Positions 745 to 60,051 of a stretch of DNA of 64,000 nucleotides are shown piece after piece. The notes beneath the pieces were generated by a model. That model was given only the letters and a program-made list of their open reading frames with translations. It was not told the DNA's origin and searched no databases. The DNA is from a virus, in IMG/VR virus record IMGVR_UViG_3300015263_000597, positions 13,688 through 77,687 of that record, one strand, 5' to 3'. A program made the translations under genes and the position numbers. How positions within the stretch are numbered: position 1 is the stretch's first letter; the number at the start of each line of letters is the position of its first letter.

Positions 745-2656
745 ATGGTACAATGCGCAAACTGCAAACAGGAACGCTGCCAATGTGAGCGGATCATCGT
801 AGACTGGTCTGAAGACGGCTATAACTGTCGAAGCGGACTTGTGCCATTTTATGCTGAAACAAGAGATGAGCTTGAAAGCAAAGTACGTTCAGCAGTTGGG
901 AACAAAGTACGTTTTAACTACCCGGACAAGATGATCCCTAAACACCCAAATGTAGACGTGCTAAATGCCGCCGTAGATGAATTTGTTCGTCGTAACCCTA
1001 GGACAACGCAATGAGCATGCTCAACTGCGACCGCTGCGGCAACTCCTGCCACATATCACATAAGTGGACATACTGCCCAAAGTGCGGCGGGCCTATGAAG
1101 CACGAGAGTGAGTCTAGTAGCAATAGACAACAGCAGGCTGAATATCGTGAGTACCTGAGACTCAAAGGCAAATTCGATAAAGGGCGCACGTGGTGAACTA
1201 CCCAACTGATGAGCAAAGGAGGCATCGTCATGCAAGAACACACCGAAGAACTGAACGAATCGACTGCCTACGCCGACTGGCAATCTAGTATAGAGGAACC
1301 AAGCACACCAGTTACCCCAGAGGAACTAGATGCCGCATGGGAAGAATTCAGCCGACGACGCAAGACACTGGATTACACGCCGTGCGACTGACTAGACTAC
1401 AGCGGAAAGCCATTGCGTACCTTGCTAGTCGAAGCGAAGGAGGCACCGCGTACGGTCTGTATAGTTCTGAGTTTAGTTTCAGCACTGTAGGTGTGGCAAA
1501 GAGAACGCTCTCGACGCTTGAGCGTAAAGGGTTGATAGACGCCGTGGGCACTAGGTACTACGCGAAGAAAGGGAACGTGTGCCAGCAAGCGGACGCAGCA
1601 GGCTCTCTAGAAGAAGCAGAGGCTGACTCACACGATAACACCCCAACGGGCATTTAGCTCAGTGGTCAGAGCATCCGGCTCATAACCGGTAGGTCGACGG
1701 TTCGATCCCGTCAAGGCCCACCACAGCACTCTACACAAGAAAGGCGCACATGACTATGATAGATGTAAGAGAACACATAGCGAGTCTGTTCATAGACATT
1801 CAGAAACACGACACCGCAGGGAGCTTCGTAGGACTAGTGTTAACAGACATCGGGCTAGAGCTTTGTCTGGGATACAAAGGAAGTGACGGACAAAACTACC
1901 TGCAAAACACAGCAGACTGTAAAAGAATAAAACAGTTCTTAGCCTGGCTGCCTGTACCATCCCTTAGCCATTTCAAAAAAGCGCTTCCACAGTACGCAGA
2001 TGTTTTACCAGAAGACGCACCAGAGGACACAAGATGAAAGCAACAGCACAACGCGCAGTTACTATCACAATAGAGCTAAATGAGACAGAAGCTTGCTGGC
2101 TTATTGCAAACATGCAGAACCCACTACACGGCGTGCAACCTGATCATGAAATAGATAATGACAGGGCGTGCAGGATAGAGCTATTTACTGCGCTATCACA
2201 AGTGCTTGCAGCACAGGACGGAGAAAACTAGCGCCAGCTTTAACCGCGCAGTCCAGACAAGGAACACACATGGAAAGAGTCAACATAAAGTACCTAAAGA
2301 TGGCAGAAGAAGCGAAAGCGCACTTCTCTAATAACCTTCATCATCTCACGTACACAGACGGAGAAATTGAAGACGGGGATCTACTCGCTGTCTACTGGAA
2401 CCCGTACTCAATTATCGTGCTAGGTGTTGATGAGCCCATGCGTGTTGAACTAGACGACGCAATGCCTGGGCGAGTGCTTATCGAAGATAGAGCGGCTAGT
2501 GTTGACAACCAGTGCCTGCTGCAACTAACTGTCAGTGAGGCAGCGTGGTTACGAGATGCTGTAGAATGCACTGATACTAAGCCCGGTGCAGACAATGTAG
2601 TCAAACTTGACATAATGGGCGCACTTACTAGGTTCCTTGACGGAGAAGATGAATGA
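745..2656 (+). other. Cluster of small hypothetical CDSs (745-1014, 1011-1196 Zn-ribbon, 1230-1391, 1750-2037, 2034-2231, 2270-2656)
   Basis: Tightly packed ORFs with ATGA overlaps and GGAG/AGG RBSs; CxxC motifs in the first two. Confidence 0.7.
1648..1723 (+). tRNA. tRNA with CAT anticodon, most likely tRNA-Ile2 (lysidine)
   Basis: 76-nt cloverleaf GGGCATT-TAGCTCAGTGGTCAGAGC-ATCCGG-CTCATAA-CCGGT-AGGTC-GACGG-TTCGATC-CCGTC-AAGGCCC-ACCA. G1-C72 (not initiator), C4-G69, A73 and encoded CCA; resembles bacterial Ile2. Confidence 0.9.
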
Positions 2657-5841: not shown

Positions 5842-5896
5842 TGTCTTGCTCCTAGTCTAAGTTGTGCAGGCTACCCCGCGTTATGCCAGTCTATGT

Positions 5897-5912
5897 AGCA
5901 AGAGCTGTGCCA
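5897..5912 (-). promoter_or_regulatory. sigma54 (-24/-12) promoter
   Basis: Minus strand TGGCACAGCTCTTGCT (GG-N10-GC), 55 nt upstream of the 5841 start. Confidence 0.85.

Positions 5913-6242: not shown

Positions 6243-6249
<7 letters not shown>
6019..6249 (-). CDS. Putative ribbon-helix-helix DNA-binding protein
   Basis: NYHLRNIPPDLWARL...MTEIILLALERFA follows the Arc/FitA-like pattern. Confidence 0.55.
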
Positions 6250-6587
<338 letters not shown>

Positions 6588-6614
6588 GGTATGTCTCCTG
6601 ATCTGTGGTTGGTT

Positions 6615-6668
6615 GGCTCATCAGTGACTAGGTACCACCTAGCCAGACGGGGCGTACCCCGTTTCGCC
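6615..6668 (-). ncRNA. Hammerhead ribozyme, type II
   Basis: Minus strand GGC-GAAA-CGGGG-TACG-CCCCG-TC^-TGGCTAGG-TGGTA-CCTAGTCA-CTGATGA-GCC: complete core and three stems. Confidence 0.92.
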
Positions 6669-6896
6669 TTAAACTGAGGCAGTCATTAGCTGCACAGACG
6701 CACTGAGGAGAGAGTCTGCCTGAGCAATGCCTGCCTTCATCCACTCTCCAAACCGAGGGTGGCGCTTCTCAGATTCGGTGAAGATCGTCCAGTCAGGAAC
6801 GGTGTTGTCTAGACGGGCAAGAGCGAAGGCACGAATGGCCTTTTCTTCGAGGGCGGACTCTTCGTCGAGCATGTTGCTGGTGTAGATGGCGGTCAT
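6669..6896 (-). CDS. Hypothetical protein
   Basis: AGGAG RBS before ATG at 6896; stop codon abuts the hammerhead. Confidence 0.7.
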   Translation of the reverse strand: MTAIYTSNMLDEESALEEKAIRAFALARLDNTVPDWTIFTESEKRHPRFGEWMKAGIAQADSLLSASVQLMTASV

Positions 6897-6952
6897 GGTC
6901 TTGCTCCTAGTCGGTGTTGGTCTCTGGGGCGCGTCCCCCGTTCGATGAATAC

Positions 6953-6995
6953 AGTGTAGGACAGGGCTCTGCAAAAGTCAACCCTCTTTTGCAGA
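6953..6995 (-). promoter_or_regulatory. sigma70 promoter with overlapping inverted-repeat operator
   Basis: Minus strand TTGACT-N17-TACACT; perfect IR TCTGCAAAAG-N8-CTTTTGCAGA (6968-6995) straddles the -35. Confidence 0.75.
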
Positions 6996-7268
6996 AAAAT
7001 TTCGTGGCCTAGCAGGTCCTCTCAGTAGTCTGGTTCTTAGGCACCCTCTATTGAGGACATCAGGGGCTTAAACTCGCTTATGCCCGCCTACCGCAGCGAT
7101 AGAGGACAAAGGGATCCAGAAGTCTTGTTAGCTACTGTTGACCTCTTGATGAACTGGTCGGCTAGTGCTGAGGGCAAGGAAGACCCGAGCTGCCCTGTAC
7201 GCTTGTTGACATCGTCATGAACATACGCACTGCATTTACCAGCTGGCAGCAAAACGGGCATGTGCTAG

Positions 7269-8196
7269 TCACTTGCCTGCCTTTCTTCCACGACCTGCTT
7301 TCTCGAAAGCTTCTGCCAGTGTGCACAAAGTGATCTTCGGTCCAGTACGCCCTCTGTTCACTTCCGTGATCTCCTGCGCTGGATCATAAAAAGCATATGC
7401 GTGCTCTCGCCACTGCTCGTCTGACAACTGCTCGTCTACTTCCCGGACTTCGATATCATCATCGTTCATATTCATACCTTTAGCTTCTTATAAAGAGCGT
7501 CTAACAAGTCCTGCCGTGTAGACGCATATAGTTCCACTGTGCCGCCTTGGGTGACGAGCACAGCAGTGTGTCTGTCGCCGTCTGCGCTAATACGCAGAGT
7601 AAAGCCTAGCTTAGCGGCACGATGCTTCAGCGTTGTTTCACGATCACTCATCGTATTCCTGCTTGTGTAGATGTGCCAAGTATGCGTTAGTTTCTTCTTC
7701 CCAAGTTTGTACCGAGTACACTACGTAGCCGAACCCTATTGCTACATAAGATCCCCTGTAGATACCCATGTAATTCATGTACATCTCGCGATCTTCTGCC
7801 GTGGCGAATCTGTACTCACCTGCACAGTCGCGAGAATGGTCAACGCCTTCCCGCCAGCCCCAGTAGGTCATGCAGTACTTGCCATCTGACGTCAGTAAGT
7901 TCCGGCACTTGTCGCGTCTGTCAGTGCTCATCTGCACGGCCCCTAGAACAGTCCTCTTCAATAAGGTAAAAGCCAGTGCTAGATAGGTTAAAACGACCCC
8001 ACAGACGTTCGATGATCTGCATCTTACCGTACGCTATGGCCGCTTTGACCTTTCTGTCGTGTTCTAGACTTTCATCAATTTGCGCCCACCCGACACTGGA
8101 TCGGTGGTTATTCCCGGTCATGGCGTAAAAGTCGTGCTGACTAGACGTATCGCAGTCTGCCAGGTACTCTGCTAGAGCGTGCTTACTAAATCGCAT
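7269..8196 (-). other. Small hypothetical CDSs (7921-8196, 7644-~7931, 7269-7475 and a short ORF between)
   Basis: Overlapping start/stop codons; AAAGGAGG RBS before 8196. Confidence 0.65.
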
Positions 8197-8224
8197 GTCT
8201 GTCCTCCTTTACCGGGCGTTAGCT

Positions 8225-8281
8225 GGCATCATCAGACCCTAGGCGCAACCCTAGGGTGACGGGGGCGTACCCCGTTTCGCC
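8225..8281 (-). ncRNA. Hammerhead ribozyme, type II (extra U after CUGAUGA)
   Basis: Minus strand GGC-GAAA-CGGGG-TACGC-CCCCG-TC^-ACCCTAGG-GTTGCG-CCTAGGGT-CTGATGA-T-GCC. Confidence 0.9.
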
Positions 8282-8890
8282 TCAAGCTCGGATAATATGG
8301 CAGACTGCGGCTTCCATTTTCTGGATAGCCCTTGTGTAATCATGAACAAACGTGCCGTCCATGCCGCCCCAATTCGCCGTCTCGTCCGTTTGCTTGAACG
8401 TACAATCCTGATCAGCGACGTCAAAGAACCTCTCGGCCATCGCACAAGCCGTAACTAGCACTTTGTGGGAAAACCCGTGGAAGTATGCGTAGCATCCAAG
8501 GCTAGCCCAGCTTTCGGCTGTGTCTACACAGTGCCCGTCGAAAAGCTCGGCCTCAAACTGGCGAAATTCCTGCTCAGTGACCGGCTTGTACTCTGGACCA
8601 CGGAACTTGATGGGGTGGAGCACAGGAGAGGCAGTGTGCTTTGCGACTGCGAGATCTACCATGCGGTCAACAGCGTTAGTCCGGCACTGCCTGTATACCT
8701 TGCGAAGGGTGGCGGTATCGGTACCCACCGTATGGAACGCCATGGCGAAGATGTAACCCACCGTGCTACGGGAAAGCTGGACGCTGTTGATGTTGTCGTC
8801 AGTGTCCTCAATCGCTTGCTCAGAGATGCCCAGCAGCTGGCCGACTTTGAAGATATCTTCCTTACCGCGAGTGGTGTGTGTGTCGCTCAT
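8282..8890 (-). CDS. Hypothetical protein, first gene of a sigma54 operon
   Basis: 202-aa ORF with GAAGGA RBS. Confidence 0.75.
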   Translation of the reverse strand: MSDTHTTRGKEDIFKVGQLLGISEQAIEDTDDNINSVQLSRSTVGYIFAMAFHTVGTDTATLRKVYRQCRTNAVDRMVDLAVAKHTASPVLHPIKFRGPEYKPVTEQEFRQFEAELFDGHCVDTAESWASLGCYAYFHGFSHKVLVTACAMAERFFDVADQDCTFKQTDETANWGGMDGTFVHDYTRAIQKMEAAVCHIIRA

Positions 8891-8950: not shown

Positions 8951-8966
8951 AGCAAGAGCTGTGCCA
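8951..8966 (-). promoter_or_regulatory. sigma54 promoter
   Basis: Minus strand TGGCACAGCTCTTGCT. Confidence 0.85.
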
Positions 8967-10831: not shown

Positions 10832-10847
10832 AGCAAACAGCGTGCCA
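10832..10847 (-). promoter_or_regulatory. sigma54 promoter (divergent pair, left)
   Basis: Minus strand TGGCACGCTGTTTGCT followed by ATAGAGACTGG, as in the sister promoters. Confidence 0.85.
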
Positions 10848-11065: not shown

Positions 11066-11081
11066 TGGCACGCGTCTTGCT
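11066..11081 (+). promoter_or_regulatory. sigma54 promoter (divergent pair, right)
   Basis: TGGCACGCGTCTTGCT. Confidence 0.85.
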
Positions 11082-12361: not shown

Positions 12362-12377
12362 TGGCACGGACCTTGCT
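12362..12377 (+). promoter_or_regulatory. sigma54 promoter
   Basis: TGGCACGGACCTTGCT followed by ATGTAGACTGG. Confidence 0.88.
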
Positions 12378-39614: not shown

Positions 39615-39729
39615 GGCTGTAGCTCAGTCTGGTAGAGCAAGCGTAGCCGCAGGTTCGAATCCTGCCTCTGTGCGCAGAGTAGCTCAGTCTGGTAGAGTGA
39701 CGCTGTCAGCGGTTCAAATCCGCTCAGCC
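39615..39729 (+). ncRNA. Anticodon-less double-elbow tRNA-mimic RNA
   Basis: Two D arms, two T arms, two acceptor-like stems and one shared 5-bp helix AGCGT/ACGCT. Confidence 0.85.
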
Positions 39730-60035: not shown

Positions 60036-60051
60036 TGGCACGCAGATTGCT
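60036..60051 (+). promoter_or_regulatory. sigma54 promoter
   Basis: TGGCACGCAGATTGCT upstream of ORF 60105-60284. Confidence 0.85.

Follow-up and report, generated by a model that had tools for sequence, protein, structure and literature searches.

A type II hammerhead ribozyme spans the interval from a stop codon to the next ribosome-binding site in a complete tailed-phage genome

Introduction

Type II hammerhead ribozymes (Rfam RF02276) have been known since 2011, when clusters of them were described in prophages and phages (Perreault 2011, PMC3088659). The copies in these clusters lie on the sense strand, flank single genes or short phage gene blocks and have been proposed to process long transcripts; they share one family model, a permutation in which stem II is open, a short stem II and a pseudoknot between loop I and the 3' tail. 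All of these traits recur in HH-A, the ribozyme analysed here. Self-cleavage of clustered prophage hammerheads has been demonstrated in vitro and, within E. coli, in vivo (PMC3088659). Active type II hammerheads with a stem II of only 1–2 bp are known and a pseudoknot of at least 4 bp is the norm; it is required for fast cleavage, and shortening it costs 20- to over 100-fold in activity (PMC3088659). A role in mRNA processing is the published hypothesis for phage and prophage hammerheads (Perreault 2011, PMC3088659; Weinberg 2019), and reviews have proposed that cleavage gives cistrons separate lifetimes and translation, although no phage hammerhead has a proven benefit (PMC6765202). In Desulfovibrio vulgaris, in vivo activity has been demonstrated for three type II hammerheads (cyPhyRNA-seq, PMC8782182); like HH-A they lie beside hypothetical or phage-like genes and yield 2',3'-cyclic-phosphate and 5'-OH ends. 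Those ribozymes were verified by RNA-end sequencing, whereas HH-A is predicted from sequence.

Two more distant systems produce similar message ends by other means. Between the early genes of phage T7, host RNase III cuts the polycistronic early mRNA, which gives hairpin-capped ends and uncouples the cistrons; unlike HH-A, this processing uses a protein enzyme at a double-stranded site and belongs to a different family. The RiboJ insulator places a hammerhead and a hairpin upstream of a ribosome-binding site (RBS), so that the leader has a defined 5'-OH end independent of the upstream sequence, but it is engineered and derives from a satellite-RNA hammerhead of another permutation.

Results

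The window analysed here is a 64,000-nt stretch, bases 13688–77687 of the 77,687-bp IMG/VR record IMGVR_UViG_3300015263_000597, which CheckV grades as complete. Genes for a terminase large subunit, a portal and a major head protein mark this uncultivated virus as a tailed phage. A sequence-only reading of the window had proposed a type II hammerhead on the sense strand, here the minus strand, between two cistrons, and had suggested the Rfam hammerhead models as a check. The features of this ribozyme, HH-A, and of its flanks are as follows, in window coordinates.

6669–6896, minus strand: upstream gene of HH-A, a 75-aa ORFan (open reading frame and RBS); its TAA ends on ribozyme nucleotide 1
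6605–6669, minus strand: HH-A, type II hammerhead (RF02276) including the 3' pseudoknot tail; Rfam span 6607–6669
6666–6668 with 6615–6617, minus strand: stem II, 3 bp (G6668-C6615, G6667-C6616 and C6666-G6617, the last being C11.1-G10.1)
6662–6665, minus strand: core GAAA (G12, A13, A14, A15.1), with G12–A14 at 6665–6663
6647–6662, minus strand: stem III hairpin, 6 bp with a UACG tetraloop (6662–6657 with 6652–6647; A6662-U6647 to G6657-C6652)
6648–6646, minus strand: GUC, with the predicted scissile bond from C17 (C6646) to U6645, by model alignment and direct reading
6625–6645, minus strand: stem I hairpin, 8–9 bp, with a UGGU-containing loop (6645–6638 with 6632–6625)
6618–6624, minus strand: core CUGAUGA (C3–A9)
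6614–6605, minus strand: 3' tail of A and C only, AACCAACCAC
6605–6613, minus strand: part of the tail that is the partner of loop I in the pseudoknot, ACCAACCAC
6598–6594, minus strand: AGGAG RBS of the next gene
6243–6598, minus strand: downstream gene of HH-A, a 114-aa ORFan, including the AGGAG RBS at 6594–6598; ATG at 6587–6585

The Rfam check confirms HH-A as a genuine type II hammerhead ribozyme. With cmscan it matches Hammerhead_II (RF02276) over model positions 1–66 at 40.6 bits (E 7.9e-5), which is just 3.6 bits over the gathering cut-off of 37 bits. The order GAAA, stem III, cut site, stem I, CUGAUGA, with stems I and III looped and stem II open, is that of the type II permutation, and the core is complete (C3 U4 G5 A6 N7 G8 A9, G12 A13 A14, A15.1-U16.1 as A6662-U6647, and H17 as C6646), in columns that are invariant across an alignment of 20 hammerheads described below. 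Both the model alignment and direct reading place the GUC where the sequence-only reading had put it, with the cut between 6646 and 6645.

The ribozyme fills the gap between its neighbours, from the last base of one stop codon to just before the AGGAG RBS of the next gene. Its start at the TAA of the 75-aa gene, as proposed, is exact: the stop codon occupies 6671–6669 and A6669 is model position 1. The limits first given, 6615–6668, cover the stems and stop short of the pseudoknot tail, which reaches approximately 6605. The spacing to the next RBS, put at about 20 nt, needs revision to 16 nt counted from 6615 or approximately 6 nt from the end of the tail. The core order alone, searched as CGAAAC-N8-24-GTC-N14-40-CTGATGA, occurs at two places in the window, HH-A and a second copy, HH-B, and at none in 100 dinucleotide-preserving shuffles. 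A permissive Rfam scan of the window (E up to 5) found no further ribozyme of any class, and a search of the complete 77.7-kb phage genome with RF02276 found only HH-A and HH-B.

HH-B sits 1.6 kb upstream of HH-A on the same strand, in the following setting.

8282–8890, minus strand: gene upstream of HH-B, a 202-aa ORFan; its TGA ends on ribozyme nucleotide 1
8214–8282, minus strand: HH-B, type II hammerhead (RF02276); Rfam span 8217–8282
7921–8207, minus strand: gene downstream of HH-B, 91 aa, with a GGAGG RBS (open reading frame, RBS and codon-position composition)

HH-B scores higher than HH-A (49.5 bits, E 3.6e-7) and has the same layout, with TGA at 8284–8282, A8282 as position 1, GGAGG at 8207–8203 and ATG at 8196. 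Its GUC lies at 8260–8258, with the predicted cut between C8258 and A8257. It carries one extra U (U8228) between A9 and G10.1, an insertion that recurs in 5 of the 124 phage hammerheads surveyed below. The two copies are identical in 53 of 69 aligned columns and have stem III, the core and the five inner stem I pairs in common, whereas the three outer pairs of stem I are changed on both sides (U-A/A-U, G-C/C-G and G-U/C-G, HH-A/HH-B).

The minimum free energy (MFE) fold of HH-A alone is exactly the three-way junction. MFE z-scores are modest, at −1.7 and −1.1. Stem III keeps a pair probability of 0.91–0.98 in every flank context tested, and the partition function with native flanks retains stems III and I, mostly at 0.6–0.98. 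The 3-bp stem II behaves differently: its probability ranges from 0.0 to 0.9 once flanks are added, in nearest-neighbour partition functions that ignore the pseudoknot. Such a swing is expected, since stem II relies on a tertiary contact that the model leaves out, and with stem II marginal in context the activity of HH-A would therefore depend on the pseudoknot. Covariation was assessed in an alignment of HH-A, HH-B and 18 Rfam-confirmed phage type II hammerheads (n = 20). Imposed on these sequences, the HH-A structure gives standard pairs in 86.5% of cells, against 32–46% when the partners are slid by 1–3 columns. Fifteen of the 21 HH-A pairs are changed on both sides, and the observed values were reached by none of 500 shuffles.

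Loop I can pair with the tail as first suggested, UGGU 6637–6634 with ACCA 6613–6610, the family's consensus position, or with 6609–6606; an alternative pairing of GUGGU with ACCAC has 5 bp at −7.6 kcal/mol. At just 4–5 bp, the HH-A pseudoknot has the length usual in the family, 4 bp or more (Perreault 2011). Across the 20 hammerheads the pseudoknot columns pair in 70% of cells, mainly through conserved central G-C pairs and with little covariation. Comparing duplex energies with a null of tails taken from other ribozymes gave a weak signal at the family level (−4.72 versus −4.0 kcal/mol, p = 0.047). The HH-A tail is equalled or beaten by 14.5% of the other ribozymes' tails, which is not significant alone; for HH-B, whose pseudoknot has 4 bp with a wobble, the figure is 50%. 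The HH-A pseudoknot is therefore consistent with the family without adding evidence of its own, and the HH-B pseudoknot is uncertain. A switch by pairing of the CUGAUGA core with the RBS region was considered and rejected: a 5-bp complement is present in both copies but not above shuffles (0.11 and 0.125), and the survey showed no enrichment (3.65 versus 3.56).

HH-A lies in a leftward (minus-strand) block of small ORFans, whose role in the phage is probably early or accessory, and the claim that it separates two cistrons holds, with the stop of the 75-aa gene upstream and the RBS of the 114-aa gene downstream. The open reading frames flanking both ribozymes match the phage's terminase, portal and capsid genes in codon-position composition and are preceded by AGGAG-type ribosome-binding sites. 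Pfam and PHROG searches of ten small open reading frames around the ribozymes returned no matches. The 114-aa ORFan (6246–6587, minus strand) contains an uninterrupted run of approximately 17 glycines near its 3' end (about 6265–6320), and the strand opposite this run reads poly-proline. The translation-initiation regions of the 75-aa gene (start 6896) and of a 94-aa gene (start 5841) are near-identical, GACTAGGAGCAAGAC(C/A)ATGACC at 6897–6915 and 5842–5860 (both minus strand), and that of the 114-aa gene is similar; this suggests that they are duplicated leader modules.

The locus stands alone among the sequences searched. A comparison with 50,697 phage records gave no similar DNA, the stem III core of HH-A had no exact match in IMG/VR, and a stem III-specific hammerhead pattern had none in GTDB genomes or in metagenomes. 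Protein searches with the 202-aa flank protein returned only itself, and those with the 114-aa flank protein, the capsid and the terminase found no relatives; two other contigs are on record for the cluster of the 202-aa protein and were outside this comparison. The phage has no protein in common with 119 surveyed hammerhead loci.

Given a locus without relatives, we turned to the family at large. Scanning IMG/VR by pattern with the 5' flank unconstrained gave these 119 loci, from which a hairpin filter retained 124 non-identical type II hammerheads; in a 17-locus subset, Rfam confirmed 40 of 46. An open reading frame of at least 50 codons ends at most 40 nt upstream of 114 of 122 phage type II hammerheads (93%). 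In 53% the last base of the stop codon lies 1–4 nt before the G of GCGAAAC, a spacing found at 2.1% of positions drawn at random from these loci; another 9% have it on that G itself. An offset of −1 is the most frequent (29 cases), followed by −2 (24 cases), which is that of both HH-A and HH-B. The next start codon follows CUGAUGA at a median distance of 26 nt (IQR 19–35), with 30 nt for HH-A and 32 nt for HH-B. Matches defined by Rfam (71) agree, with an open reading frame ending nearby in 65 of 70 and a stop no more than 2 nt to either side of model position 1 in 30 of 70. On these roughly 120 copies, the layout of stop codon, ribozyme and RBS is an ordinary habit of phage type II hammerheads. 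The explanation that the conserved A at model position 1 is a mere by-product of stop codons was rejected as the sole cause, as A is found there in 65% of the hammerheads that have no stop codon ending at that position.

Copy number varies, and some surveyed phages carry 11–12 hammerheads in one locus. In the loci L018 (IMGVR_UViG_3300017605_000570), L115, L099, L027, L084 and L068 of other uncultivated phages, 6–12 Rfam-confirmed type II hammerheads are arranged with roughly one per intergenic gap.

The transcription of the block was approached through promoter-like and terminator-like sites, of which two lie close to the ribozymes.

8951–8966, minus strand: exact sigma54-type −24/−12 element, just 5' of the 202-aa gene, the neighbour upstream of HH-B
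6953–6981, minus strand: sigma70-like match TTGACT-17-TACACT, upstream of the 75-aa gene (weak evidence)

Exact TGGCAC-N5-TTGCW elements occur six times in the window, where chance predicts 0.05; sigma70-like matches in the region (7 found, 6.3 expected) are not above chance. A simple scan found no terminator-like sites on the minus strand between 8950 and approximately 5115. The transcription unit is deduced from the presence of a promoter-like site and the absence of predicted terminators: the site at 8951–8966 is likely the start of a transcript crossing HH-B, and possibly HH-A too, so that one transcript may run across both. Each ribozyme follows the first gene after a promoter-like site, which with n = 2 is a description only. 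The 372 nt at 6897–7268 (minus strand), between a 68-aa gene and the 75-aa gene, are without a convincing gene and hold one weak sigma70-like match and no predicted terminators.

Discussion

HH-A belongs to a family known since 2011 and is found in the typical place; it is a clean but ordinary example. Both copies lie on the sense strand between co-oriented open reading frames of a complete tailed-phage genome, which is the arrangement of Fig. 3 in Perreault 2011. The locus departs from those described there in having two copies, where up to 12 per locus occur elsewhere, and in its ORFan flanks and sigma54-type promoters, none of which is a difference in kind.

In the reading that we consider probable, HH-A is an active type II hammerhead that cuts an mRNA shared by the 75-aa and 114-aa genes, through which the cistrons would gain independent stability and translation. 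Once approximately 65 nt past the upstream stop had been transcribed, stems III and I would fold as local hairpins; the 3-bp stem II, aided by the pairing of loop I UGGU with tail ACCA, would then close the junction, and the RNA would cut itself 3' of C6646. The products should separate at once, because only stem II joins them. The upstream message would finish 23 nt beyond its stop, with the stem III hairpin (6 bp, UACG) and a GUC bearing a 2',3'-cyclic phosphate at its 3' end, and the downstream message would begin with a 5'-OH directly on the 8–9-bp stem I hairpin, with 30 nt of leader between CUGAUGA and the start codon and the RBS left free. In bacterial mRNA decay a 3' hairpin hinders 3' exonucleases, and 5'-end-dependent RNase E or RNase J is impeded in its attack by a 5' hairpin and by a 5'-OH end. 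Separate lifetimes and translation of the flanking cistrons would be the likely effect, and HH-B would act alike. The sequence-only reading had likewise proposed self-processing of the mRNA into a 5'-OH downstream message and an upstream message with a 2',3'-cyclic phosphate, a proposal that is supported in that it fits hammerhead chemistry and the published reading. What the sequence shows is a complete motif in a position typical of the family; that it cleaves in vivo, how far its transcript extends and what it does to expression are inferred.

An active ribozyme could also be mainly a neutral or selfish cassette that duplication or recombination has carried into intergenic gaps of phages, where the units are tolerated because cleavage there is harmless and not kept for the control of expression. 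HH-A and HH-B are identical in stem III, core and inner stem I (53/69 columns) and yet flanked by unrelated ORFans, other phages carry 7–12 copies per locus beside varied genes, and the identity of hammerhead-flanked genes is not constant (Perreault 2011, PMC3088659), all of which suits such a cassette. The regular placement of 93% of copies, on the sense strand between stop codon and RBS, and the compensatory changes in the stems point instead to selection within mRNAs and make us regard the cassette as unlikely, even though one that needs to stay harmless would show much of that regularity too. Still less probable is that HH-A does not cleave, or cleaves too slowly, and serves as a structured intercistronic spacer that insulates translation or slows exonucleases. 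A score near the cut-off, a 3-bp stem II that is marginal in context, a short pseudoknot and, in HH-B, a weak or ambiguous pseudoknot and an extra U in the core region are what one might expect of such a spacer; however, no core position deviates, the U insertion recurs in nature, two intact copies in the genome argue against decay, and a stem II of 1–3 bp is normal in active type II hammerheads (PMC3088659).

The two ribozymes might, at the far end of the scale, act jointly and release a 1,612-nt RNA (8257 to 6646) that a host RtcB-type ligase would circularise into a stable circular mRNA or RNA. RtcB takes substrates with 5'-OH and 2',3'-cyclic-phosphate ends, which the hammerhead products would fit, and the two copies lie on the same strand with no predicted terminator between them. 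We nevertheless hold this to be highly improbable: the phage is without an RtcB gene, the 372-nt gap with a promoter-like site between the ribozymes suggests two transcription units, and spliced or circular products of clustered hammerheads have been sought and none found (Perreault 2011, PMC3088659).

Cleavage of a shared mRNA, the reading that we prefer, leaves room for a further function of the fusion with the stop codon. Beyond genome economy, the fusion might be a functional coupling in which translation of the upstream gene sets when the ribozyme folds and cuts, though we would give this little credence. A ribosome terminating at UAA 6671–6669 would mask the GAAA core together with the 5' strand of stem II and one half of stem III, and translation of the upstream gene would also help product release. 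If this were so, the ratio of joined to separated message would follow the translation of the upstream gene.

HH-A adds one clean predicted example to a class whose chemistry is understood and whose benefit to phages is unproven. With two ribozymes in a complete genome, each after the first gene following a promoter-like site, the locus is a small test case. The survey puts numbers on a general rule, in which stop codon, ribozyme and RBS follow one another with almost no spare nucleotides, and this may aid gene callers and RNA annotators.

Other features of the genome

The sigma54-type sites lie at 5897–5912, 8951–8966 and 10832–10847 on the minus strand and at 11066–11081, 12362–12377 and 60036–60051 on the plus strand, a set that is unusual for a phage. 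A search of the phage genome for the Sigma54_activat domain (PF00158) found none, so these promoters would depend on a host activator. As a still more remote extension of the stop-codon coupling considered above, the 2',3'-cyclic-phosphate ends might feed a host RtcR-type sigma54 activator and through it the phage's sigma54-type promoters. Ro60/TROVE and RtcB domains were also searched for across the phage genome and none were found; a link to phage-encoded RNA-repair or sigma54 machinery was discarded, as the genome is without Sigma54_activat, RtcB and TROVE domains.

The phage encodes a tRNA-Met with anticodon CAT at 1648–1723 (plus strand). A tRNA-like RNA lies at 39615–39729 (plus strand), with a 61-nt insert replacing the anticodon region; it scores 29.2 bits with the Rfam tRNA model against a threshold of 29, ARAGORN makes no tRNA call, and its inner part gives a weak match to YrlA (Y RNA-like) at 37 bits against a threshold of 69.
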